The notes: generated by a model not told the origin, from the sequence alone. A stretch of 64,000 nucleotides of DNA from Candidatus Saccharimonadota bacterium (GCA_019352195.1 JACAFG010000001.1:130485-194484), one strand, 5' to 3'; counted from the stretch's first letter, positions 9,811-64,000 are shown. A program made the numbers and translations.

Positions 9811-10602
9811 CTACTGCGTTGGTGTCCACACCAACGTGCCAATAGTTTCGCCTCTCACGGCCCGTCCGATATTGCCTGCGGTGAGCAAGTTGAACACTAT
9901 GATGGGCATGGCATAGTCCATGCACAGACTGAAGGCGGTGGCGTCGGCCACCTGCAAGCCGCGTTCGAGCACTTCGCGATGGGTAATCTCGGCGAACATG
10001 ACGGCGTCGGGGCACTTCCGAGGATCGGCATCAAATACCCCATCGACTGCCTTGGCCATCAAAACAACTTCGGCGCTGATCTCCAACGCGCGCTGGGCAG
10101 CAGTGGTGTCGGTGGAAAAGTAGGGCATTCCGACGCCAGCACCAAAGATGACGACACGACCTTTTTCCAAGTGTCGCTCGGCGCGGCGGGGGATATAGCT
10201 TTCTGCCACTTGGCCCATGGTGATAGCGGTCTGTACCCGGGTTTCCAGATGTTGTTCTCGCTCCAAGAAGTCTTGAAGTGCCAAGCAATTCATAACGGTT
10301 CCAAGCATGCCCATGTAATCGGCGCGCCCTCGCTCCATGCCCAGCTGGGTGAGCTCGGCACCACGGAAGAAATTGCCTCCCCCAATGACGACTGCCACCT
10401 GAACGCCATCGTGAACGATGTCGGCGATCTGCGCCGCAACTGCCGAAAGAATCTTCGGCGCAATCCCTAGCTCGCCATCGCCAAACATTTCGCCGCCGAG
10501 TTTGAGCATAACCCGCTTAAAACGTCGTCGCGGACCTGAGTCGGCGGCCAATGCCCGCTCCATTTCTGCGGGGTCAAAACCGGTTCTCGTTTGCGATATC
10601 AT
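9811..10602 (-). CDS. pyrH: UMP kinase
   Basis: Amino-acid kinase fold motifs [23 protein letters not shown] and [15 protein letters not shown]. 263 aa. Confidence 0.9.
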
Positions 10603-11367: not shown

Positions 11368-11814
11368 GTGAAGCCAAGTCGCCCGGTGGCAAAAATTTGG
11401 ATTGTCTGCACCATAGTATTGGCAGCGGCGTTTGTTGCCGCGGCCTACCTCAACTACGTTCAGTACCAGCGTGCCCAAGATGCCCAGCGACTGCTCAACG
11501 GCACTATCACCGATTTGCGCTATCAATTATCGATCGATGAAAAAGGCGCTTCACCCAGTCCATCTCCCAGCTCCTCACCGTCGCCGACGCCCGTTCCGGC
11601 CGCCAGCCCCGCCGCATCCACTCCGGCTCCAGCAGCCACCACTACGACAAATCAGGTGGCCAATCTTCATTCCCAACCAGATGTCCATTCGGCGATTCTT
11701 GCAAAACTAGCTGCGGGTACCGTGGTAACCCTTGGCAGTCCAGCAGCTAGTGGCTACCGTCAAGTAACGGTCAATGGAACGACGGGATTTGTTCTCCAAG
11801 CCTACCTTAGGTAG
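11368..11814 (+). CDS. Small TM-anchored protein, paralog 2, with Pro/Ser/Thr linker and SH3b-like C-terminal domain
   Basis: GTG start preceded by aggaag. Carries YLNYVQYQRAQD like paralog 1. C-terminal NLHSQPDVHSAILAKLAAGTVVTL...YRQVTVNGTTGFV resembles the bacterial SH3 (SH3_3) pattern. Confidence 0.55.
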   Translation: MKPSRPVAKIWIVCTIVLAAAFVAAAYLNYVQYQRAQDAQRLLNGTITDLRYQLSIDEKGASPSPSPSSSPSPTPVPAASPAASTPAPAATTTTNQVANLHSQPDVHSAILAKLAAGTVVTLGSPAASGYRQVTVNGTTGFVLQAYLR

Positions 11815-11869
11815 TCGCCCCAAATGATGCGATGCATAACCGGCATAATCTGTTAAAATCATAAGCAAC

Positions 11870-12139
11870 ATGAAAGAACGACATCTCATAACATATCAGT
11901 GGATTCTTATCGGAGTCCTGCTCGTCGGTTTCGTCGCCGTCAGCATCATTTCACTTAACCGCTCGCAAGCTATCGAGCAGGCCAAAGCCGGGCACAACGG
12001 CGATATCGCTAGTCTCCAGGAACAGCTGCGGCAAGCTAAAATTCCCCGGCCGACCACCGCTCCACTGCAAGAATCCGTCAGTAATTTAGCCTCGCCCAGC
12101 CCGTCGGTTACGCCTACGCCGGTAGCCAAAACCAAGTAG
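11870..12139 (+). CDS. Small TM-anchored protein, paralog 3
   Basis: Same architecture as the neighbours: TM helix, short coiled-coil (LQEQLRQAK) and Pro/Thr-rich tail. Confidence 0.5.
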   Translation: MKERHLITYQWILIGVLLVGFVAVSIISLNRSQAIEQAKAGHNGDIASLQEQLRQAKIPRPTTAPLQESVSNLASPSPSVTPTPVAKTK

Positions 12140-12156
12140 TTACGCCAGGAGGCCCG

Positions 12157-12432
12157 ATGAAAAAGTCTCATAATACGTTGATCATTGTTTTGCTAGTCGT
12201 TCTCATCGTAGTTGCCGGAACTGCCATAGTTTTGCAATATAACCAAAACAAGTCGGTTGCTGCGGCTCGCGATGAGTTGCAAAGCGAAGTCTATACACTC
12301 CGAGGCGAGCTGCAGGCAGCGCTCGCGACACCAACGCCTACGCCAACTCCGGTAGCGACGCCAGCGCCCACCCCGAAGCCGACTGCCACTCTCAAAGCTA
12401 CTGCCACTCCCAAAGTTACTCCCACACCATAA
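12157..12432 (+). CDS. Small TM-anchored protein, paralog 4
   Basis: aggagg SD precedes the start. TM helix, LQYNQNK, coiled-coil (LRGELQAAL) and a TPTPTPTP tail. Confidence 0.5.
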   Translation: MKKSHNTLIIVLLVVLIVVAGTAIVLQYNQNKSVAAARDELQSEVYTLRGELQAALATPTPTPTPVATPAPTPKPTATLKATATPKVTPTP

Positions 12433-12708
12433 GGCCAATCGGAATATCGACCTCGTTGGGATCACTTCAACCGTATCCCAAGGGCAGATTGGCAGAAAAA
12501 TGCCCAGGGGATTCTTGTTGCGACCGTCGGCGCGAACAGCATTTGCTACCAGCACGCCCAGGCGATCTCCTCTGGTAAAGTAGATGCTGAAGCTCTGCAG
12601 TCGAGTCAGTCCGACCAACTCTAAGCCGCTTTCGCGGGTATCAAATAACCACCACGCGTTTGTTCAGTCTAACCATTAGCGTTACAATGAGAACATAACA
12701 AAGCGCAT

Positions 12709-14010
12709 ATGGCTAAGCTGATCGAAAAATTAGTCCGCCTTCGTTCATCGGGTACACCCGCTGGGCCGCGTTACCTCGTCGCGCTCGATATTGGAACTGA
12801 ATTTGTTAAGGCTCTTATTGGCCAAGTGGTATTAGATCCCGCTTCGGGTGTGCCGTCGCGCATTGATATTGTGGGTGTTGGCCGTCAGCGGCAGCGTCTC
12901 ACCGATATGGCGGGCGGTGCAGTCACCGATATTACGGGTGTGGTTGAAAACTGTGATGCCGCTTTGGGTGTAGCCGAAAAAATGGCTGGCGTTTCCGCCA
13001 AAGGACTCGATACCGTCGTTGGTATTGCCGGTGAGCTGGTAAAGGGCGCTTCCACCACTATCCGCTATAAGCGTTCAACGGCCAGCGACCCCATTGATAT
13101 GCCGGAATTACGCAAAATTCTGGATAGGGTTCAATTTCGCGCCTTTGAGCGTGCACGGGAGCAGCTTACCTGGGAAACGGGCCAAAAAGACCTCGAAGTA
13201 AAGCTGGTTAACACTGCCATTGTCGACGTCCAAATCGACGGCTATCGTGTCACCAACCCCATTGGCTTTCAGGGCAAAGACGTTTCCATTCAGCTCTTCA
13301 ACGCCTTTGCTCCCATGGTGCACCTCGGCGCACTCCAGGCAGTTGCACAAGACCTCGATCTTAACCTATCAACCATCGCCGCCGAACCGTTCGCAGTGGC
13401 AAAATCGGTTGGAGCCCAAGATTCGGGCGAATTTTCGGCCATTTTTATAGACATTGGTGGCGGGACCACCGATATAGCACTCGTTAATAATGGCGGTGTC
13501 GAAGGTACCAAAATGTTTGCCATTGGCGGCCGTGCCTTCACCAAACGCATTGCTCAAGTTGCCAACGTGAGTTTTGAGAAAGCCGAGGAAATGAAAATAG
13601 CCTACTCGCAGGGAAAGCTTGGACCAAAGAGCAAAACGGCTGTCGAAGAAGCCGTTAACGCCGATATCAAAGTCTGGCTATCGGGCGTTGAGCTAAGTCT
13701 GGCTGAGTTTGACCGCGTCGACCATTTGCCCGCCAAAATCTTACTTTGTGGCGGCGGTACGGGCCTACCTCAAATTATGGAAGCACTCAAAGGTAAAGAC
13801 TGGTTTAAGACGCTTCCCTTTGCACGTAAACCGACGGTAGCTCACATTTCGCCGGCCGAAGTTACGCGGGTTACCGATACCACGGGCAAACTCACGAGCT
13901 ACGCCGATATTACCCCTATGGGACTAGCCAACCTTGGCCTCGACACCGCCGGCGGAGAAACCGTTACCGAAGGCCTCATTAAGCGCCTCGGCCGTGCCAT
14001 TGCCAACTAA
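12709..14010 (+). CDS. ftsA: Actin-like ATPase, FtsA-like cell division protein
   Basis: ALDIGTEFVKALIG is the phosphate-1 motif and IDIGGGTTDIALV the phosphate-2 motif of the actin/HSP70 superfamily. 433 aa matches FtsA; a PilM-like alternative cannot be excluded. Confidence 0.6.
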   Translation: MAKLIEKLVRLRSSGTPAGPRYLVALDIGTEFVKALIGQVVLDPASGVPSRIDIVGVGRQRQRLTDMAGGAVTDITGVVENCDAALGVAEKMAGVSAKGLDTVVGIAGELVKGASTTIRYKRSTASDPIDMPELRKILDRVQFRAFERAREQLTWETGQKDLEVKLVNTAIVDVQIDGYRVTNPIGFQGKDVSIQLFNAFAPMVHLGALQAVAQDLDLNLSTIAAEPFAVAKSVGAQDSGEFSAIFIDIGGGTTDIALVNNGGVEGTKMFAIGGRAFTKRIAQVANVSFEKAEEMKIAYSQGKLGPKSKTAVEEAVNADIKVWLSGVELSLAEFDRVDHLPAKILLCGGGTGLPQIMEALKGKDWFKTLPFARKPTVAHISPAEVTRVTDTTGKLTSYADITPMGLANLGLDTAGGETVTEGLIKRLGRAIAN

Positions 14011-17252: not shown

Positions 17253-18265
17253 CGAGTTCCAACCCTTACTCTCGAGCAACCAATCGTAAGCGCCCTCTGT
17301 GGTGGCTCGTTGCCCCTGTCATGGCCGTGCTAATTATTGGCGGCTACGGTTGGTACCAGCTGCAGCTGCGTGCGGTTGGGCCAGGTAAACCCACCATTTT
17401 TATAGTAAAGCCAGGGCAAAGCGCGCCAGCCGTAGCTAGCGATTTAGCTACCGCCAAGCTGATAAGAAGCCGTAACGCTTTTATTACCTACCTTAATTTC
17501 CACCATCTGCGCGGGGAAATTAAGGCTGGATCCTACGCTTTGTCGCCCAGCGACAGCAGTCCGCACATTGCTAACGTTATTACCGTTTCCTCGTCTCTCG
17601 GACAAGTAGTGATCCCTGAAGGATACACTATCCGCCAAATTGAAACCGCAGTTGCCTCACACGGGATTTCGACAGCCAGTTTTGAAGCCGCCCTTGCCGA
17701 ACCGCATACCCAAGCGGGCTTGAGTAGTAAGCCGACCAACGCCAGCCTCGAAGGCTATTTATTCCCGGATTCGTACGAAGTTGTCCCTGGTGTCACCACG
17801 GCTAGCCAGCTCGTGAATACCATGCTCGACACTTTTACGGCCAAAGTCAGAACCACCTATGACGCCGATTTTGCTGCCGAAGGCCTCACACGTCACCAAG
17901 GATTAACGCTGGCTTCGATTGTCGAAAAAGAGGTGAGTCGCCCGGAAGATCGGCCCATCGTAGCGCAAGTATTCTTAAAACGCCTTAAGCTTGGCATGCC
18001 TTTAGGCTCCGACGTGACGGTTGATTACGGCGCCGCGCAACTTGGGACAACCTTTAGTACTACCCTGAATTCGCCTTACAATACCTATTTGCATACGGGA
18101 CTACCGATTGGTCCCATTTGTAACCCGGGCTTATCAGCTCTGGATGCCGTGGCACATCCTGCCGCCACCGACTATTTATACTTTGTTGCAGGTTCGGACG
18201 GTGTGACACATTTTGCCGCTACCTACGCCGAACACCAGGCCAACGTCGCCAAATATTTAAAGTAA
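17249..18265 (+). CDS. mltG: Endolytic murein transglycosylase MltG (YceG-like)
   Basis: N-terminal TM helix and YceG motifs PYNTYLHTGLPIGPICNPG and EGYLFPDSY. Confidence 0.85.
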   Translation: MTSSNPYSRATNRKRPLWWLVAPVMAVLIIGGYGWYQLQLRAVGPGKPTIFIVKPGQSAPAVASDLATAKLIRSRNAFITYLNFHHLRGEIKAGSYALSPSDSSPHIANVITVSSSLGQVVIPEGYTIRQIETAVASHGISTASFEAALAEPHTQAGLSSKPTNASLEGYLFPDSYEVVPGVTTASQLVNTMLDTFTAKVRTTYDADFAAEGLTRHQGLTLASIVEKEVSRPEDRPIVAQVFLKRLKLGMPLGSDVTVDYGAAQLGTTFSTTLNSPYNTYLHTGLPIGPICNPGLSALDAVAHPAATDYLYFVAGSDGVTHFAATYAEHQANVAKYLK

Positions 18266-18645
18266 GCGAGCGGTCTGCAAATATTTAGTCATAATTACAT
18301 ACTCTCACCGCTTGACAGACCAATATTTAGATCTATTACTGAAAGAAGTTAGATTTACAACATTTTCCCAACGATTTTTTACTCTTAGCAAAGCCATTTT
18401 CTCAATTTGACACCTTTGACAGTCGTTGTTAGACTACGTTAGTAAATCGATAAGCTTAAGTGGTATAGGTGATTAAGTCCCTTCCGTAGCATTGATTTAC
18501 TATCTTGAAAGGTCGACACGAAGACTTAAACGTAAGGTCGAACTTCTTCTGTCCCGCCTCAGGCGGGAGAAAGTCCTAGTAAAGATAGTTTCTCGTTTGT
18601 TCTTATGAACATTCGAGGTGGAGACAAGTTATTAGTAGAAGTGCC
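18266..18645 (+). promoter_or_regulatory. Long AT-rich 5' leader or promoter region upstream of the LysM-CHAP hydrolase gene
   Basis: A 380-bp non-coding stretch with a GC hairpin (cccgcctcaggcggg). It is unusually long for this compact genome. Confidence 0.35.
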
Positions 18646-19851
18646 ATGAGTGGCTCCCTCGAACAATTCCCAAGTGGCCAACTGGCCGACGGAATCGGAA
18701 CCGCCACTGAGACATTCTCTAACATCAAAACGTCCGCCGCTGTCCGTCGCGCACAAACTGCCCCCGCCCATCTTAGTCAATCAGTTGCCGCGTCTTCAGT
18801 TAAAGCCGCTTCTGTTGTTCGCGCTGTATATCGTCCGCGATTTGTTGCCCACGCCGGTTTGCTGGTGTTGGCAGGAGTAGTGGTGCTCAGCAATAGCCCG
18901 GTCCGTACCCACGCGTTATCGCTGCGCCTTACTTCGGCTCAGGCCGGAATTGGCTCGACGCTTGATGAAGTAGGCCAAGCCGCCGTGGCCGCCGACATCG
19001 CTTCATCGGCCAACATGATGGTTACTACCGAAGCAACCAAAACGGCTACCGCCAAAACAGCGCAGGTATCTTTACTGACCTCAGACGATCTGTCATTGGC
19101 TAAGCGACAGGTAGTACAAACCGCGGGTAACGCTACCCGAGATATCACGAGCTATACCGTTGCCAATGGCGACACGCTGTCCGGGATTGCTGCCAAGTTT
19201 AATATCACTTCGGCCACTTTGGTCGCGGCCAACAATCTTGCCAGCGCCGACGCTATTAAGCCCGGACAGTCACTCACCATTTTGCCAGTTAGCGGGCTTC
19301 TGTATACGGTGCAGTCTGGGGATACAGCCGACACCCTGGCCTCTAAGTACAGCGCCAATGCCGCCCAAATTACGAGCTACAATAATGCTGAAGTTAAGGG
19401 CCTTACGCCTGGTACCAAAATCATCATTCCTGACGGAGTAATGCCTCAAGCTCCAGCTGCAGCTGTTGCTGCCGCACCAGCTGCAGCTGTCTCGAGCCGC
19501 AGCACCATCAGCCCGTCATCAGCACCCAAGCTCACCGCCTTCTATGGCGCCGCCAATGGCTACTCGTTTGGCTACTGCACCTGGTATGTCGCTAACCGCC
19601 GCTCTGTCCCGTCGAACTGGGGTAACGCTAACGCCTGGTATTACAACGCGCAGGCCTCAGGTTTCTCAGTGGGATCAACGCCCGTACCTGGCGCCATTGC
19701 TTGGAGCGGCGCCGGCTACTACGGCCACGTAGCCTATGTTGAGAGCGTCTCGGGTGGCAACGTCACGATTTCCGAAATGAACTTTAACGGAAACTGGGAC
19801 AAAGTTACCTATCGCACGGTCTCGGCGTCATCCTTCCGCTACATTTACTAG
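18646..19851 (+). CDS. Peptidoglycan hydrolase with N-terminal TM/signal, two LysM domains and a C-terminal CHAP domain
   Basis: LysM domains: YTVANGDTLSGIAAKFNI...A and YTVQSGDTADTLASKY. CHAP domain: GYCTWYVANRR...GHVAYVESV with catalytic Cys and His. Confidence 0.8.
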   Translation: MSGSLEQFPSGQLADGIGTATETFSNIKTSAAVRRAQTAPAHLSQSVAASSVKAASVVRAVYRPRFVAHAGLLVLAGVVVLSNSPVRTHALSLRLTSAQAGIGSTLDEVGQAAVAADIASSANMMVTTEATKTATAKTAQVSLLTSDDLSLAKRQVVQTAGNATRDITSYTVANGDTLSGIAAKFNITSATLVAANNLASADAIKPGQSLTILPVSGLLYTVQSGDTADTLASKYSANAAQITSYNNAEVKGLTPGTKIIIPDGVMPQAPAAAVAAAPAAAVSSRSTISPSSAPKLTAFYGAANGYSFGYCTWYVANRRSVPSNWGNANAWYYNAQASGFSVGSTPVPGAIAWSGAGYYGHVAYVESVSGGNVTISEMNFNGNWDKVTYRTVSASSFRYIY

Positions 19852-54198: not shown

Positions 54199-55023
54199 AT
54201 GTATAGCTTACTGAATCTTTCTGGCGACAGCCAGGGTTGCCTGGATCTGGTTATTGCCAACGTTTATCCTGATGGACTGGTTTGCCCGTGGCTGCTACAT
54301 TCTTCGGTATTGGTCCGCGAAAAGTACCTGTGGTGCTCGTCATGCCGCCGTAAATGGTCCTTAAAACGTCAGTTTGGCTTTGGGTTCTCCAAGCTATCGT
54401 GGCGCCAGATCTTGGCTCTTATCATCTGTTGGCAGGGTAAGCATGCACCGGGCGACATTCAGATCGCCACCGGCTTGTCATATCCCACCTTGCAGCGCTG
54501 GTTGGAACGTCTACGCCGGAAGCTGCCGGATGGCAAAGCCGCTGCCCTAGCCGGAGAACTAGAAATCGATGATAGCTTCCTGGGCCACCAGAAACATGGT
54601 AACCAGGCGATTGTTAGTGGTGTGTTGGAACGGCAAACGGGAGCTATACGTCTCGCCGTCATACCGGATGTGGCCCAAGACAGTATCGAAGGCTTTCTTG
54701 ACCGGTACGCCGAAGTTGGGAGCTTAATCTACGCCGATGCCCATGCTTCACATGTCGGACTGGAAGACGTCGGCTATGGCTTAGTTCTCTGCAACCATGA
54801 CCGCGGCCACTTTGGGCCAACCAACCGGATTGAGAATGTTTGGAGCTGTTTGGACCGGTTTGTGATCCGGACCCGTGACCGGTTCTTGAAGCGCTTCTTA
54901 CCGGGTGTCCTACAAGAGTTTCAGGCCAGACGTAATCACCCGGAACTGTTTCGAGATCCCTTTACCTTACTTAAAGTATGGCTGTTCCGGTTTAGTGGAC
55001 AGAACCCTTTCGTTAACTGTTGA
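54199..55023 (+). mobile_element. IS1595-family (ISXO2-like) transposase ORF
   Basis: N-terminal Cys-rich zinc-ribbon-like region and the DDE_Tnp_IS1595 pattern (LEIDDSFLGHQKHG...SGVLERQTGAIRLAVIPD...GSLIYADAHASH). Imperfect inverted repeats aaaacggaacaag (54137) and cttt-attccgttg (55047) suggest an IS of about 920 bp. Confidence 0.65.
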
Positions 55024-58178: not shown

Positions 58179-58622
58179 GTGAAATTACCAAACTTTCTGC
58201 CCGTCACCACTGTTTATGCTCACTGCGATTTGCCCTGCGGCATTTACGACCCCGCCCAAGCCCGCATTGAAGCCGCCTCGGTGTATGCCATCACCAAAAA
58301 ATATCTTGAAAATGAGGCGCCCGATTTTCGGACGCGCGCTCTCATCGTCAAAGAAGAGCGCGCCGAGCTCGTAAAGCACCATTTGTGGGTATTGTGGACC
58401 GATTACTTCAAGCCAGAGCATCTTGAAAAATACCCCCAGTTACACGATCTGGTTTGGAAGGCCACCAAAACAGCCGGCGATACCAAGCACCACACCGAGC
58501 TCGAAGTCGCCAAACAATTATTAGACCAAATTGACACCATCGGCGAAATTTTTGCCGCTACCAAGCCGGGCTACGACTACGCCGCCGTTATCAAAAACAC
58601 CAACTTGCAGGCTGGCCTTTAG
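58179..58622 (+). CDS. sodN: Nickel superoxide dismutase precursor
   Basis: After a 14-aa propeptide the sequence reads HCDLPCGIYDP, the NiSOD nickel-hook. About 130-aa mature four-helix bundle. Confidence 0.9.
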   Translation: MKLPNFLPVTTVYAHCDLPCGIYDPAQARIEAASVYAITKKYLENEAPDFRTRALIVKEERAELVKHHLWVLWTDYFKPEHLEKYPQLHDLVWKATKTAGDTKHHTELEVAKQLLDQIDTIGEIFAATKPGYDYAAVIKNTNLQAGL

Positions 58623-58624
58623 AC

Positions 58625-58915
58625 GTGCGCAGCCTTCGGCCGTTGGGGCTATACCGCGTTGCCGGCATGTCCATGGCACCCAGCTACCAGCCTGGTCAGA
58701 TTTTGATCGGCTGGCGCTGGGGCCGCGCACGCGCGGGTCGCGTAGCGGTAATACGTCACGGCCAGCCCATTATTAAGCGCCTCATTCACCGCATCCACAA
58801 CGACTGGTGGGTGGAGGGCGACAATAAAGCTGTCTCCACCGACAGCCGGCAATTTGGTCCCATTGCAGCCTCCGAGATAGAAGCTGTTATCATTTGGCCC
58901 AAGCCGCAAAGCTAA
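58625..58915 (+). CDS. sodX: NiSOD maturation peptidase (S26 signal-peptidase-like, SodX)
   Basis: GTG start 3 nt after sodN. GMSMAPSY is the S26 catalytic Ser motif, with a catalytic-Lys region (KRL). 96 aa. Confidence 0.75.
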   Translation: MRSLRPLGLYRVAGMSMAPSYQPGQILIGWRWGRARAGRVAVIRHGQPIIKRLIHRIHNDWWVEGDNKAVSTDSRQFGPIAASEIEAVIIWPKPQS

Positions 58916-59453: not shown

Positions 59454-59528
59454 TGGGATGTGGCCAAGCGGTAAGGCGTCTGATTCTGGCTCAGAAGATC
59501 GTAGGTTCGAATCCTACCATCCCAGCCA
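59454..59528 (+). tRNA. tRNA-Gln (anticodon CTG)
   Basis: Acceptor TGGGATG/CATCCCA with U1-A72, anticodon stem TCTGA/TCAGA with loop TTCTGGC, T-arm GTAGGTTCGAATCCTAC, discriminator G, CCA encoded. Confidence 0.8.
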
Positions 59529-61112
59529 TTTAGTTTTTATACCCGCAATAGCGGCAGTTTTCTCCTCAGCAGAGCCAGAATCTGAGGTTCTAACCATTTC
59601 ATATTCAGCCTTGAGCGCCGGTAGGCCTTTTTGGATAGGAATAAGCCACTCAAAAGGCATTAATTCGATTTTCCCGCCGTAAAGTGTTGGGTTTGAACCC
59701 AGCGCCAGTAATATGTCGCGCTTGGCGGTAATATCGCCTTTCTCAAACCGCTCTCGGCCATGAGCGATCACATCAATCGTCTTGTGCAGACCTTCACGCC
59801 AACTGGCCGCCCGATTTGTGGTGTCGGCGACATTATCTTCCATATCCTTGATCTGGCTCAATAGAGCTTTCGATTTTTCCTTAAACACCTCGTCCCGGAT
59901 TAGCTCTTTGCTAGCCATGTCGATCAATTTGTCATGCTGTTGGCGCATTTGCTGCAAGGTAGAAAACTGCGTATTTTCAATAGCTTTTCGCTCTTCTGCT
60001 TCGGAGCCGTTCATTTCCTTAATAGCTTCGAGTGCCCACTCCTCAAATTGAGGATGAATTGTGTAGCTATCGAGCAAAGCGTCTAATTGGCCGGCAAGAT
60101 TCTTTTCCTCTACCGTTTTGCGGTTATCGCATGGACGCTTGCGCGTGCAGTGATAGTAGATGTAATGCAGCACAGTGCCGTTCTTCAGCCTCTTATATTT
60201 GTCTTGGGCAGTTACGCTACAACCGCACTCCTTGCAGAAGAGGAAGCCTCGATAAGCAAACTCTTTAACTACCGATTGTCGGGGCTTGCCCTTATTGCCG
60301 AGAATGATCTGCGCCTTATCATACTCTTCCATAGTGACCATCGCGGGGTAGTTGGCTTTTTCGTACTCGCCGAGCTTACCAGGTACAGGTATTAGCCCTG
60401 TATACCGAATATTAGTAAATAGGAGATAGAGAGTGCTACGGGTCATAGGCGTACCGCCAGACCTGCGGCGTACCGGCGTACGGTAGCCCCATTCATCATT
60501 CGCTATTTTCTGTATCATCGGCACGCTGTAATTTCCGGAAAGAAGCATGTCCCACATCTTCCGTATTAGCGCATGCCGATCTTCATCAGCAATAATGATG
60601 CCCTGGTCAGGGTTATTAGGGTTTCGGGCATTCAAGTAACCTGGGAGTGCCCTATAAGTTAACCAACCATTCTTGCGCTGCTGTTCGTTGCCACGCTTAA
60701 CATCCACACTGAGCTTAGCCGAGTAATACTGTGACTGACTCATCATGCTTTGCAGCATCATGATACCGTCCGGCGAATTGTTGAAATGATAGGAACCAAA
60801 TTTGAGGTCTTGGATAAATCCACGCCGTATTGCGTAGGTGATGTTGGCGGCGTCAATCTCATTGCGGGATAGGCGGTCAGGGTGCCATGACAAAATACCA
60901 TCAGCTTCGCCGTTCTTGATCATATCCATGACCTTGGCGAAGACAGGTCGGCCCGGCTCAAATGCGCTGCGGCTTTCCTCTAGTGTGGCAACTATTTTGA
61001 TGCCCGGAAACATCTCCCTCAGCTTGCGTGCCTGGGCGGGGATTGATAAGCTCTGTCGCTCAGCGTCTTCGGACGATTTACGAGCGTATAAAATGTAGCG
61101 AAGTGAATTCAT
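59514..61112 (-). mobile_element. Large serine recombinase (integrase) gene abutting and overlapping the tRNA-Gln 3' end
   Basis: N-terminal resolvase catalytic domain YARKSS...(S nucleophile), DGILSWHPDRLSR, a recombinase domain, and a Cys-rich zinc ribbon (CKECGC...C). About 532 aa. The 3' end overlaps tRNA-Gln by about 15 nt. Confidence 0.8.
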
Positions 61113-61261
61113 ATTTATTCCCAAAAACCTAAAGGGCGACTCGGTTGTTGACACAGTCCATAGCAAGAAGCTATTTCCTGATACCGAGCCGCCCTTACGG
61201 GCCGGGAAATAAAAACACTTCTCGCAAATTTATGGACCGTGTCAACGTTCACATTGTACCA

Positions 61262-62668
61262 TTAGTGGCCAAAAAAGAACTTCCGGGCTTCATCGTCCAG
61301 GCTATCAAGCGCCCCACTACCCGACCCTATATTGTTTGCATCGCGAGGGTCATTTCCTTCCGGGAACCACTTAGGAAAGATATGTGGACTGCGTTTATCG
61401 CTACCTTCGATATCTGGTTTTCGCTCCTCAATCAGACCAGAACCTCTTAGTTGTGGAAGAATTTCTTTTCGAAGTCTCTCATCATTGAGCATTGAACGAT
61501 TTTTACGATAATGCTGATCCGCAACCTCCTTCCGGGTTACGCCTATTTTGTCTGTTTTTATATGTTCGGAGATATCAGGGTCATTCGCCTTATTGAGATA
61601 AATGAACAATACAAAGTCCTTGTAAAAGTCTATCAAGGCAGGTGGGACGTTCAAATCTTGGCTTTCAGCAAGGCTTTCCCATAGTACGAATGCTTGATCA
61701 ACGTCATTCTGGTTAGCGACTATAGTCCCGTCTTGCTGTCGCCGAAACCATACATTCAGCAAAGCAATGGCCTTGATGAGCTGCTGTATATGCGCAATAT
61801 CCCGCTGATGGCGTGCCTTTAGCTTAGGGAATGTTTTGAGAAAACGCTGCTCGATAGCTTCTGGATTAATAAGGATGATATTGTCAACGTGAGCTTGCCG
61901 AATTGCTAAAATCCGCTCAATTAACGCCCTACGCTTTGGATTTGCCTCTAGTTGATTATCAAACTCGATTGCATTTGCGCCGCGCTCTGATTGCAAATGT
62001 ATGCCCGCTCGAATCTTTTCATCGGTGACTTCCGAACTTAGCATTATCGCCCGGGTAGCATCTTGTTCATCGAGTCGCATACTTGCAGAGCAAAATACTG
62101 TTGCCGGATAACCACGTAGAATGACACACTCAACGTGGTTAGACCCCTTGTTGTTCCGGTTTGTGAAACGGTATTCAAGCTCCCATTTATCATGTGACAG
62201 AAGTGGGCGCAATTTGGTCTGCACTAGGGAATTTGATTGCTCTGACAGGATAAGTATTTTGCGTTCAAACTCTATAACTTTAGCCTTCAGGATTTTATCC
62301 TTTTTGCCCTCGCCATAGAAAAGTGATGTAGGCGTTGCGCCGCTTAATTCAATTTTATCTTTGGTCGGAAAAAGCTTTGCGACTTCAGTTGTGGTGTAAG
62401 TCTTGCCCGAAGAGCTTTGCGAATTGAAGCTGATATTGATTTGGTCATCTTTGGTATACGCGGAAAGCATGCACAGCAGAGTAAGTACTTTGTTAACGTA
62501 ATCTTCCTTTATTGTTAAGGACAGGACTTCCGCAACCTCATCCAGACTTGTTTCGCGAAATTGTGAAGTATCAATTATGGGCATCTCTTCGGCTTGTTCT
62601 GCGACGGAAGCGACTTGCTCCGTGGAGTCGCCGTTGCTAGGTAATTTGGTGGGGCTGTTCTCATTCAT
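61262..62668 (-). CDS. P-loop NTPase, putative replication-initiation/primase-helicase-like protein of the integrated element
   Basis: Walker A-like NSQSSSGKTYTT. About 468 aa, located next to the integrase. Start set to the ATG overlapping the upstream small ORF. Confidence 0.35.
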   Translation of the reverse strand: MNENSPTKLPSNGDSTEQVASVAEQAEEMPIIDTSQFRETSLDEVAEVLSLTIKEDYVNKVLTLLCMLSAYTKDDQINISFNSQSSSGKTYTTTEVAKLFPTKDKIELSGATPTSLFYGEGKKDKILKAKVIEFERKILILSEQSNSLVQTKLRPLLSHDKWELEYRFTNRNNKGSNHVECVILRGYPATVFCSASMRLDEQDATRAIMLSSEVTDEKIRAGIHLQSERGANAIEFDNQLEANPKRRALIERILAIRQAHVDNIILINPEAIEQRFLKTFPKLKARHQRDIAHIQQLIKAIALLNVWFRRQQDGTIVANQNDVDQAFVLWESLAESQDLNVPPALIDFYKDFVLFIYLNKANDPDISEHIKTDKIGVTRKEVADQHYRKNRSMLNDERLRKEILPQLRGSGLIEERKPDIEGSDKRSPHIFPKWFPEGNDPRDANNIGSGSGALDSLDDEARKFFFGH

Positions 62669-62834
62669 GATTAATATCCATCTTATTAACTTCCTTCTCT
62701 CGTTGAGTCTTTGCGACCACGAAGCGTACAATAGCCGCTCCGGCCTCTTGAGCCTGTTCGCTGGTGTACTCCAGCCCATACAGTTCTTTGAGGAGTTTCC
62801 GAAGGCTAGTGATGCGCTCGCTGCTCAGCCTCAT
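62661..62834 (-). CDS. Small (57 aa) hypothetical protein of the integrated element
   Basis: ORF MRLSSERITSLRKLLKELYGLEYTSEQAQEAGAAIVRFV... translationally coupled (ATGAATGA overlap) to the P-loop gene. Not in the ORF track. Confidence 0.3.
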   Translation of the reverse strand: MRLSSERITSLRKLLKELYGLEYTSEQAQEAGAAIVRFVVAKTQREKEVNKMDINHE

Positions 62835-62836
62835 GG

Positions 62837-63103
62837 TTACTTACCGGCGTAAATCCGGCCCTTTAGCGCCTTGATGTTGTCGAAATAGGTACGCGCATCA
62901 ACTTGTAAGCGGCCCTCAAAATACTCATCCCAATTACCCTGAACATCGTCATCATCAGAAAAAATGAACGAGGCTCTTCCTTTCTTATCGCGACTGATTT
63001 TCTCAAGTTTGCACTTGGTAGTGATCAAAGCTGCTGCTAATCCTAAGTCGGTAGTGCTAATTGCCCCTCCATACATTTCATCGAATAGATCATCCACATC
63101 CAT
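62837..63103 (-). CDS. Hypothetical acidic small protein of the integrated element
   Basis: 88-aa ORF. Confidence 0.3.
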   Translation of the reverse strand: MDVDDLFDEMYGGAISTTDLGLAAALITTKCKLEKISRDKKGRASFIFSDDDDVQGNWDEYFEGRLQVDARTYFDNIKALKGRIYAGK

Positions 63104-63199
63104 GGTTGCCGCTCCAAAATTAAAAACACCCCCATCGTATTTGGGGGTATTCTGTCAGTTGTCAGTAAGAAGTCAGTGGACTAGCAGACTACTGGCTTG

Positions 63200-63949
63200 C
63201 TACTTGATTTCGAGACGCCAGCCCTCGCGGGGAACGTTTTCGATGCAATCTTTGCCGATCACTCTTTTGAGCTTTGTGTGAACGGCCCAAATGAGTTTGC
63301 GCAACGTAGCATCCTTATCTGGGTAATGCTCGCGAGTAAATACGTCTGGATTGTTAGTAAAAGCATCCTTAGTCAGGAGCCTTTCCGGGTTGTCTAGAAA
63401 TACAAACATTACTTGCTGTTCTTGGAAGGTAAAGGGGATTGGTGTACCTCTGTAACTTATCCGATTATCGCTATCAACAGCTACGCCCTTATACTCCTCA
63501 TGCTCACTCTCATCATCCAATGCTGCTATGGCGGGTTTTACAGACCTGGCTTGGGCCGCGACGAGCTGCTGCACCGGCTTGGCCTTAATCTCAAGCTCGG
63601 CAAATGCGATGGTGCCGGCGTGCCTATATGACAGCCCGGCGGCGATACTACCCACGCTGTCGTCATACCCCATACCCACAAGCCACACATCACCTGTCAC
63701 TAGTTGATGGGCAAGGATAAGCTCCCAGAATGTGGCGCCGGGTACAACTGACGATTTTATAATTGGGCGATACCCATGCTGCGGATAATCTTGGACGGCG
63801 GCCCGCCAGAGCTTCATCTGTTGGCTCGCAAAATTCTCCGGTCTGGTCTCCCTTCCGGTCGTGAGCTTGTCCTCACTGTACTTTTCAAGATATGCAGTTA
63901 GCTCATCAGTAAACTTTTGCCTATTGATATCAGTTAGCGTAAATAGCAA
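63200..63949 (-). CDS. Protein with C-terminal OmpR/PhoB-type winged-helix DNA-binding (Trans_reg_C-like) domain and novel N-domain
   Basis: The C-terminus FTFQEQQVMFVFLDNPERLLTKDAF...ATLRKLIWAVHTKLKRVIGKDCIENVPREGWRL follows the Trans_reg_C pattern. There is no receiver domain. Confidence 0.45.
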   Translation of the reverse strand: MLFTLTDINRQKFTDELTAYLEKYSEDKLTTGRETRPENFASQQMKLWRAAVQDYPQHGYRPIIKSSVVPGATFWELILAHQLVTGDVWLVGMGYDDSVGSIAAGLSYRHAGTIAFAELEIKAKPVQQLVAAQARSVKPAIAALDDESEHEEYKGVAVDSDNRISYRGTPIPFTFQEQQVMFVFLDNPERLLTKDAFTNNPDVFTREHYPDKDATLRKLIWAVHTKLKRVIGKDCIENVPREGWRLEIK

Positions 63950-64000
63950 GTACCGCTTAGCTTCATTGGGTAGCGTTTCAACTTCGGCTGTAGTGAGCGG

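Follow-up and report, generated by a model that had tools for sequence, protein, structure and literature searches.

A probable tRNA-Gln-targeting serine-integrase island of a Candidate Phyla Radiation family, with an MCM-like ATPase, predicted defence cargo and a conserved structured element

At the end of a 64,000-nt stretch of DNA from a Candidatus Saccharimonadota bacterium (GCA_019352195.1, JACAFG010000001.1:130485-194484; hereafter the window, whose numbering is used throughout), we found an island that begins at the 3' end of a tRNA-Gln(CTG) gene with the gene of a large serine integrase. It is a tRNA gene-targeting serine-integrase island that belongs to a large family of the Candidate Phyla Radiation (CPR), common among the ultra-small Saccharibacteria, with an MCM-like AAA+ ATPase, predicted defence cargo and an undescribed conserved structured element. 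We consider it highly probable that this is a mobile island, which was inserted at the tRNA-Gln 3' end by its own serine integrase. The features that define its two junctions are the following (att denotes attachment sites):

59454-59528, plus strand: tRNA-Gln(CTG), the integration target, intact and with its CCA encoded (ARAGORN; Rfam tRNA, 70.2 bits)
59522-59528, no strand: attL core CCAGCCA, the final 7 nt of tRNA-Gln, with the same 7-mer at the far end of the island
59543-59561, plus strand: weak hairpin CCGC-AATA-GCGG, then three bases and TTTT, supplied by the element directly after the tRNA
59514-61112, minus strand: large serine integrase, 532 aa, whose reading frame crosses the junction without a stop and is closed by one in the antisense of the tRNA
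72492-72498 (window-equivalent; position 12829-12835 of the extension L077): proposed attR core CCAGCCA, on the basis of G+C step, terminator and flank likeness

The integrase and the left junction

The integrase open reading frame (ORF; 59514-61166, minus strand) encodes 550 aa if read from a TTG at 61166 and 532 aa from an ATG at 61112. An earlier note, made by a model from the window sequence, had placed the end of this gene in the last 15 nt of tRNA-Gln. This is indeed where the TAG stop is found (59514-59516): the last four integrase codons and the stop (K-W-L-G-W-stop) lie on the final 15 nt of the tRNA, the first of the two C-terminal Trp codons being the antisense of the encoded CCA, and the integrated tail reads ...KTKWLGW-stop. 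The same note took the tRNA-Gln 3' end for the left junction of an integrated element, and both the far repeat and the element-free relatives presented below agree with that. The overlap between integrase and tRNA is not due to chance, because it recurs in 34 independent loci.

With regard to family membership, both the resolvase catalytic domain and the recombinase plus zinc-ribbon domains of a large serine recombinase were found in the protein. It matches Pfam Resolvase (1.1e-17) and PHROG 95, 'integrase' (8.5e-61), while the Recombinase and Zn_ribbon_recom domains are weak in the single sequence, which falls just under the Pfam cut-offs (19.5 vs 21.1 and 23.2 vs 25.3 bits, respectively). 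Searching the Protein Data Bank (PDB) with the single sequence gave no match and a family profile was needed: the profile of 25 members matches SprA of SPbeta over its full length, about 455 positions (2.4e-25), and the recombinase and zinc-ribbon domains of the A118 integrase (4kis, 2.6e-11). Y9, R11, the nucleophile S13, R55, R80, R83 and the four zinc-ribbon cysteines are invariant in the 25 family members.

The conserved part of the integrase ends at about ...KASEEAIRLKW, and the tails beyond it are unrelated among loci, in length and in sequence, in either state. Since attP would lie inside the integrase ORF, the last residues differ between the integrated and the excised form, and the predicted tails do so in every bounded element. 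For the window copy, the predicted circle form has 551 aa and the tail ...KTKWLAIMAQVKHLIVSSPDAAGYVS before its stop (also given as ...KWLAIMAQVKHLIVSSPDAAGYVS before the stop, 551 aa), compared with 532 aa and ...KWLGW before the stop when integrated. No directionality factor was identified for the integrase.

The DNA on the element side of the junction is kept right after the tRNA among elements inserted in different tRNAs, whatever the tRNA identity. The hairpin and T-run found there may replace the displaced terminator of the tRNA. In the window copy the hairpin is weak (fold of -5.7 kcal/mol, z -1.4), whereas its equivalent in relatives is strong, such as AGCCTC-TTCG-GAGGCT followed by TTTTT in locus L063 (z -3.4).

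Immediately upstream of tRNA-Gln lie a nickel superoxide dismutase gene (Sod_Ni, 5.6e-43; 58179-58915) and the gene of a small S26-type maturation peptidase, an arrangement that is kept in relatives. Further into the host flank, an IS1595-family DDE transposase gene (about 54199-55023; position 17646-18470 of L001, see below) adjoins rpsP, a KH-domain gene and trmD. In two relatives, metagenome contigs break off at tRNA-Gln or shortly past it (L086 at its position 10521, L080 92 nt past the tRNA), which suggests either population-level variation or repeats at a hot spot that break assemblies.

The far boundary, element-free relatives and recurrence at tRNA ends

The earlier note had the element run past the window end, and extension of the contig bore this out by placing the end of the island at about 13 kb. 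For this purpose, we used contig JABBYD010000010.1 (GCA_017884045.1, 259 kb; run SRR11551193) of a Candidatus Saccharibacteria metagenome-assembled genome, which has the 468-aa protein of the island on record. One part of it, L001, agrees with the window at each of the 12,739 bases that they share, and a second part, L077, adds 17.7 kb; positions convert as window = 72669 - L001 position and window = L077 position + 59663. The island spans about 12,970 bp, from the attL core at 59522-59528 to a second CCAGCCA at window-equivalent 72492-72498. A hairpin followed by nine T's starts 11 nt past this second copy (a terminator, L077 12846-12880), and G+C steps from 0.40-0.46 to 0.53-0.57 just beyond it (L077 about 12900-13200). 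Furthermore, the flank after the second CCAGCCA (AAGAAATTATG...) resembles the tRNA-Gln flanks of element-free relatives (AGGAATTATC..., GGAATTATTA... and GAAATTATTG...). We set attR at 72492-72498 because the G+C step, the 7-nt repeat with its terminator and the flank that resembles an empty site coincide there, and this exact position of the far boundary is, in our estimate, probably correct.

A repeat of the tRNA end about 13 kb downstream is thus in place, as the earlier note had proposed to look for, but at 7 nt it is not the long repeat that had been expected. No repeat of the tRNA-Gln end of at least 10 nt was found within 13 kb or in the extended contig, and a long direct repeat of the kind left by tyrosine integrases was dropped on that account. 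A 7-nt repeat is plausible for a serine integrase. As regards the displaced tRNA fragment of the Islander definition, it measures 7 nt here vs 9-19 nt in six relatives, and the tRNA is intact.

Relatives without the element were found through the neighbouring host gene. In seven loci (L083, L084, L085, L093, L094, L097 and L105), the sequence available downstream of tRNA-Gln contains none of the element genes, and most of the element-free relatives keep the order trmD-bla-sodN-sodX-host150-tRNA-Gln. Syntenic relatives lack all of the element genes, and the outcome that the earlier note had named as contrary to its proposal, namely that these are core genes of the relatives, was thus not observed.

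The wider family was collected by scanning one genome per GTDB species for homologues of the putative helicase gene of the island (the MCM-like ATPase, see below). Such a homologue is present in 75 loci, about 40 of which show the order winged-helix protein, DUF5659, 57-aa ORF, helicase and serine integrase. In 34 loci, the integrase ORF lacks its own stop and runs 12-177 nt into a convergent tRNA. These tRNAs are Gln(CTG/TTG), Trp, Tyr, Arg(GCG/TCG), Gly(TCC/CCC/GCC), Ser and His, i.e., seven amino-acid identities. The 3' end of the tRNA is repeated at the far end of six further elements, with the following lengths:

L063: 19 nt
L038: 18 nt
L061: 15 nt
L019: 12 nt
L040: 10 nt
L010: 9 nt

These six repeats bound elements of 7.8-12.5 kb, and each includes positions 3-8 counted from the 3' end of the tRNA. 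Three of the far repeats were examined for their surroundings (L063, L019 and L010), and each has a terminator-like hairpin on its host side. Other candidate repeats were not retained: those at L004:448 and L003:82 were rejected, as an empty site reconstructed with them would have a broken acceptor stem, and a 9-mer at L004:7483 falls within a conserved gene and is probably a chance occurrence.

Several further observations concern these junctions and the range of integrases. Two tandem repeats of the tRNA end occur at the far junction of L063 (2666 and 2851) and of L061 (502 and 564), with a similar short element-end sequence after each; they look like remnants of earlier insertions, which would have accumulated in tandem at the same tRNA. 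L047 has a second serine integrase gene (17284-18846), which overlaps tRNA-Glu(TTC) by about 40 nt and widens the set of tRNA targets. In L028, L031, L036, L042 and L043, genes of distant serine integrases (at about 11600-13400) stand beside the MCM-like gene, and no tRNA was detected in any of these loci; the target of this branch is probably of another kind. Just past the island of the window strain, two tandem paralogues of 348 and 347 aa carry an Mtd_N domain (major tropism determinant N-terminal; L077 13649-15739, window-equivalent 73312-75402) and could be targets of a diversity-generating retroelement.

Core module, structured element and cargo

The core module of the island consists of a winged-helix protein, a DUF5659 protein, a 57-aa ORF, the MCM-like AAA+ ATPase and the integrase. 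Besides the integrase listed above, its components and the structured element upstream of it are:

61262-62668, minus strand: MCM-like AAA+ ATPase, 468 aa (the 'P-loop protein' of the earlier note), from a fold search; putative replicative helicase
62661-62834, minus strand: conserved 57-aa ORF, family F4, with tblastn matches at the same position in about 30 loci
62837-63103, minus strand: DUF5659 protein, 88 aa, family F2 (Pfam DUF5659, 1.5e-08; 53 members in the loci)
63200-64000 and on to window-equivalent 64339 (L001 8330-9469), minus strand: OmpR/PhoB-type winged-helix protein, 379 aa in whole, of which the C-terminal 249 aa lie in the window
64453-64605 (window-equivalent, past the window end; L001 8064-8216), listed on the minus strand, although counts of G.U vs A.C assign no strand: structured element of about 150 nt, from fold and covariation

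The five core genes are all intact and stand close together: the DUF5659 ORF ends 2 nt before the 57-aa ORF, which in turn overlaps the start of the 468-aa gene by 8 nt. This spacing confirms the coupled small ORFs of the earlier note, and its 468-aa P-loop protein is likewise present with the Walker A motif SSSGKTYTT. Its 249-aa protein, by contrast, was an ORF cut by the window end, the full gene encoding 379 aa. The description as primase-like or replication-like held in part, inasmuch as the fold is that of an MCM-like AAA+ protein; the window copy has no primase domain, and a Toprim domain occurs in some homologues only.

The 468-aa protein has more than 1000 homologues, and those with a source name all come from Saccharibacteria/Patescibacteria; many of them are proteins of 730-790 aa with an N-terminal Toprim domain. 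When the family was compared with the PDB by sequence, no match was obtained; a precomputed match to PF27228, MTBMA_p00010_2nd, is weak. An AlphaFold (AF2) model built from 72 sequences (pLDDT 85.5, pTM 0.83) was therefore the basis of the name MCM-like AAA+ ATPase, which we chose because its top fold matches are MCM subunits: nearly all of the best Foldseek matches in the PDB belong to this group (best E 8e-8, probability 1.0). Neither the GKT of Walker A nor the conserved acidic residues vary in the family. In the model, only about 75 residues precede the first strand of the P-loop core, and no N-terminal OB or zinc domain of MCM proteins is evident. The modelled fold points to a helicase role for this protein, as the putative replicative helicase of the element.

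In the 379-aa protein, the C-terminal 90 aa or so form an OmpR/PhoB-type winged helix. The window copy itself stays under the Pfam cut-off for Trans_reg_C (E 0.0027, 18.2 vs 26.2 bits), while 13 of 14 family members match this domain (best 1.3e-10), and the family profile matches DrrD (5e-7, the best), ArlR, CadC, ToxR and PhoB in the PDB. A receiver domain is absent, with Response_reg matching 0 of 31 family members, which agrees with the Trans_reg_C winged helix without a receiver that had been noticed in the window. The N-terminal two thirds have no Pfam match, and a homologue search with the 379-aa protein returned itself alone. We regard this protein as a candidate initiator or regulator. 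The 57-aa protein may be a small regulator or, as may the DUF5659 protein, a directionality factor.

No other DNA of the family is as well conserved as the structured element, which lies directly upstream of the winged-helix gene: its identity is 77-87% even between elements with integrases that agree at only about 45% of residues. It folds far better than shuffled sequence (z -6.5). In a five-helix model, 88.8% of cells are paired and 13 pairs are changed on both sides; the covariation score is 0.264, compared with 0.130 in shuffles (reached by 0 of 500) and at most 0.05 with slid partners. A covariance model detects the element in 20 loci, of which three had not been part of the seed alignment. 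No Rfam family matches it, and Tandem Repeats Finder revealed no iterons. Judging from its position, the element may be an origin, or a copy-control, leader or other regulatory RNA.

The remainder of the island, on the far side of the core module, contains two genes of predicted defence function:

66472-69663 (window-equivalent; L001 3006-6197), plus strand: Mokosh-like gene with SF1 (superfamily 1) helicase, PLD (phospholipase D) and Zn ribbon (PADLOC MkoA, 9.2e-59, and MkoC, 2.8e-39; Pfam AAA_11, AAA_12, PLDc_2)
69664-71703 (window-equivalent; L001 966-3005), plus strand: PARIS-like fused AriAB gene (PADLOC AriAB, 1.1e-38; Pfam AAA_15, AAA_21, DUF4435)

Judged by sequence, the first combines the SF1 helicase and PLD nuclease of Mokosh systems, and the second the ABC-type ATPase and DUF4435/Toprim nuclease of PARIS, in fused form; we thus predict two anti-phage systems. 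Several further ORFs without assigned function lie between the core module and attR, and a segment at L001 6300-7800 encodes proteins of 284 and 177 aa with no family match. At the same place, relatives carry other cargo: type I restriction-modification, HTH-Mrr-STAND, an AAA ATPase with an S8 protease, and an RPE65-family oxygenase.

These components suggest the following course of events. The circular form would carry attP at the very 3' end of the integrase gene, and the serine integrase would recombine it, presumably by a 2-bp crossover, with attB in the 3' acceptor/CCA end of tRNA-Gln(CTG), a reaction that we propose from the short terminal repeats. We place the crossover within the shared CCAGCCA, where its exact position would have to lie. 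The predicted attP junction reads L077 ...CCATAATGG-CCAGCCA-TTTAGTTTT... (window 59529 onward) or, in a longer form, ...AACCTGGGCCATAATGG/CCAGCCA/TTTAGTTTTTATACCCGC..., and the predicted attB junction reads ...GGTTCGAATCCTACCATCCCAGCCA/AAGAAATTATGAAAAAGAG... Upon integration, element sequence would restore the tRNA end including its CCA and add the hairpin and T-run after it, the original flank and terminator of the tRNA would be displaced by about 13 kb, and the integrase tail would switch from its 551-aa circle form to the 532-aa form ending in KWLGW. Once excised, the circle may be replicated and/or regulated, in a plasmid-like manner, by the core module with its upstream structured element; for a replicative role of the core module we see an even chance. 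The variable rest of the island would be cargo, here the two predicted anti-phage systems.

Alternative explanations, known systems and significance

A number of observations weigh against a mobile, replicating island. The terminal repeat of this copy, at 7 nt, is not significant by itself and takes its weight from the context. The predicted empty-site junction had no match in the metagenomes of the Joint Genome Institute (JGI), and the genes on the far side of the contig stand beside tRNA-Gln in no relative, and therefore no true empty site of the same species has been seen. No circular contig was found either: all short contigs with the helicase gene that were checked are integrated forms, with no terminal overlap. 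The likeness of the ATPase to MCM proteins is one of fold, with a TM-score of about 0.4 (query), an identity of 10-14% and no PDB match by sequence. Within the island, the segment at L001 6300-7800 (window-equivalent about 64870-66370) has a G+C of 0.56-0.59, host-like or higher, because of which the island may be composite or mosaic. Finally, no primase, partition, packaging or transfer genes were found in the island, which weakens the case for autonomous replication and cell-to-cell movement.

Some of these points would also suit a decayed, immobile remnant, that is, an island once inserted by the integrase and now inherited vertically as a fixed defence island. The short repeat (compared with 9-19 nt in relatives), the lack of a circular form among the contigs checked and the host-like internal segment are all in its favour. 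Nevertheless, the integrase is full length, with catalytic and zinc-binding residues that match the family-invariant positions, and the five core genes are intact and still tightly packed. Large serine recombinases need only very short identity at the crossover, which is enough to accommodate the short repeat. Moreover, an integrase 90% identical (tblastn) is found in L003, at tRNA-Gln in a different species, and L003 and L008 DNA is 83-84% identical (blastn). We consequently deem a remnant improbable and retain a mobile island as the preferred reading. Two kinds of mobility had been suggested by the earlier note, which likened the element to a phage satellite or an integrative and conjugative element, and gene content gives support to neither. 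A satellite or cryptic prophage packaged with the aid of a helper phage would share with this island its small size, tRNA site, replication gene beside the integrase and defence cargo, a combination known from some phage satellites. Yet no relatives of the helicase were found in 2.9 million IMG/VR contigs, the integrase is the only protein to match a PHROG of known function (the winged-helix protein has one weak match, to a PHROG of function unknown), and neither this element nor the related ones examined carry genes for capsid, terminase or packaging interference; such a dependence on helper phage is highly improbable. An integrative mobilizable or conjugative element, moved by conjugation, would likewise be a tRNA-gene island with an integrase and variable cargo, but genes for a relaxase, a coupling protein or type IV secretion were found in none of the elements examined, which leaves this explanation with hardly any probability. 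Capsid, packaging, relaxase and type IV secretion domains were also absent from the element proteins scanned.

A different question is whether the overlap between integrase and attL acts as a switch, in which the integrated and excised tails alter the stability or directionality of the integrase, so that integration controls the enzyme. Mycobacteriophages BPs and Brujita offer an analogous case with their integration-dependent immunity. The ORF lacks a stop before the junction in 34 of 34 loci, the predicted tails differ between the two forms in every bounded element, and the same feature has been noted for DsiB (PMC3146451). On the other hand, the tails are conserved in neither length nor sequence in either state, the conserved protein ending at about ...EEAIRLKW, and the data are explained equally well if attP overlaps the 3' end of the gene and the changing tail is a neutral by-product of this. 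We accordingly consider such a switch doubtful.

The closest precedent is the integrase DsiB (ACZ62382) of the Dehalococcoides ssrA islands, a 540-aa serine recombinase at attL of islands with a 20-bp repeat of the tmRNA 3' end (McMurdie et al. 2011, PMC3146451); according to the same paper, the overlap of dsiB with attL is constant, and the gene reaches a stop only within ssrA or the following island (PMC3146451). Both systems, with DsiB compared by description, have a serine recombinase of about 540 aa at the attL edge, at the 3' end of a tRNA-like gene, a short far repeat, an integrase ORF that overlaps attL and has its stop in the target gene, and a syntenic module by the integrase with variable cargo. 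The DsiB islands differ in that they target tmRNA (ssrA) with a 20-bp repeat, whereas the present family uses ordinary tRNAs of many identities with repeats of 7-19 nt. They also carry the small serine recombinase DsiA, ParB, Mom and RecF-like genes, none of which is in this island; here, a winged-helix protein, DUF5659, the 57-aa ORF and the MCM-like ATPase are found instead, in Saccharibacteria/Patescibacteria as hosts.

Other known systems share fewer features. Islander-type tRNA islands likewise have an intact tRNA regenerated by the element, an integrase beside the tRNA and cargo, and their displaced tRNA 3' fragment may have its counterpart in the 7-nt repeat, but they use a tyrosine integrase, whereas the sole recombinase here is of the serine family and the repeat is much shorter, covering only the 3' strand of the acceptor and the CCA. 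The integrases SprA, A118, TP901-1, phiC31 and Bxb1 have the same resolvase catalytic domain, recombinase domain and zinc ribbon. As a rule, these enzymes of phages and SPbeta insert into protein-coding genes or intergenic sites, and reading across attP is not known to be usual for their genes. An MCM-like AAA+ core in a mobile replication module is also known from archaeal plasmids and proviruses and from bacterial prophages; compared with those helicases, the likeness here is one of fold (10-14% identity), and the partner domain in some homologues is Toprim, not primase-polymerase. Pipolins and P4-like satellites are small integrative elements at a tRNA gene with defence systems in a variable region, and differ in core module, recombinase family and host phylum. 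Literature searches, which covered few papers from subscription journals, found no published description of the family, and large island surveys may list cases.

Taken together, and put forward tentatively as a reading that we hold to be possible rather than probable, Saccharibacteria and other Patescibacteria might host a large undescribed family of small replicative-integrative elements, whose integrases have diversified for the 3' acceptor ends of many tRNAs, targets that were regarded as reserved for tyrosine integrases. In these elements, attP would lie in the 3' end of the integrase gene, and a tail that toggles with integration could set directionality without a separate factor; an MCM-like helicase, which in some members is fused to Toprim, would drive replication by acting on the structured element of about 150 nt or under its regulation; and the family would be a main vehicle of anti-phage genes in these reduced genomes.

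Serine integrases are valued in genome engineering for their short att sites and their independence of host factors. Integrases of a family that targets the universally present tRNA 3' ends, and in which natural variants already cover at least seven tRNA identities, would find ready landing sites in many organisms, including CPR bacteria that are hard to manipulate. According to the 2015 Islander paper, islands in tRNA genes are made by tyrosine integrases only, the serine type not being known to target tRNA genes, a statement that is amended by serine-integrase tRNA islands. In Saccharibacteria, for whose mobilome no description was found in the literature searched, these islands may be a major type of mobile element and carrier of defence genes, and the structured element together with the MCM-like ATPase would provide handles for a replicon or vector for these organisms.

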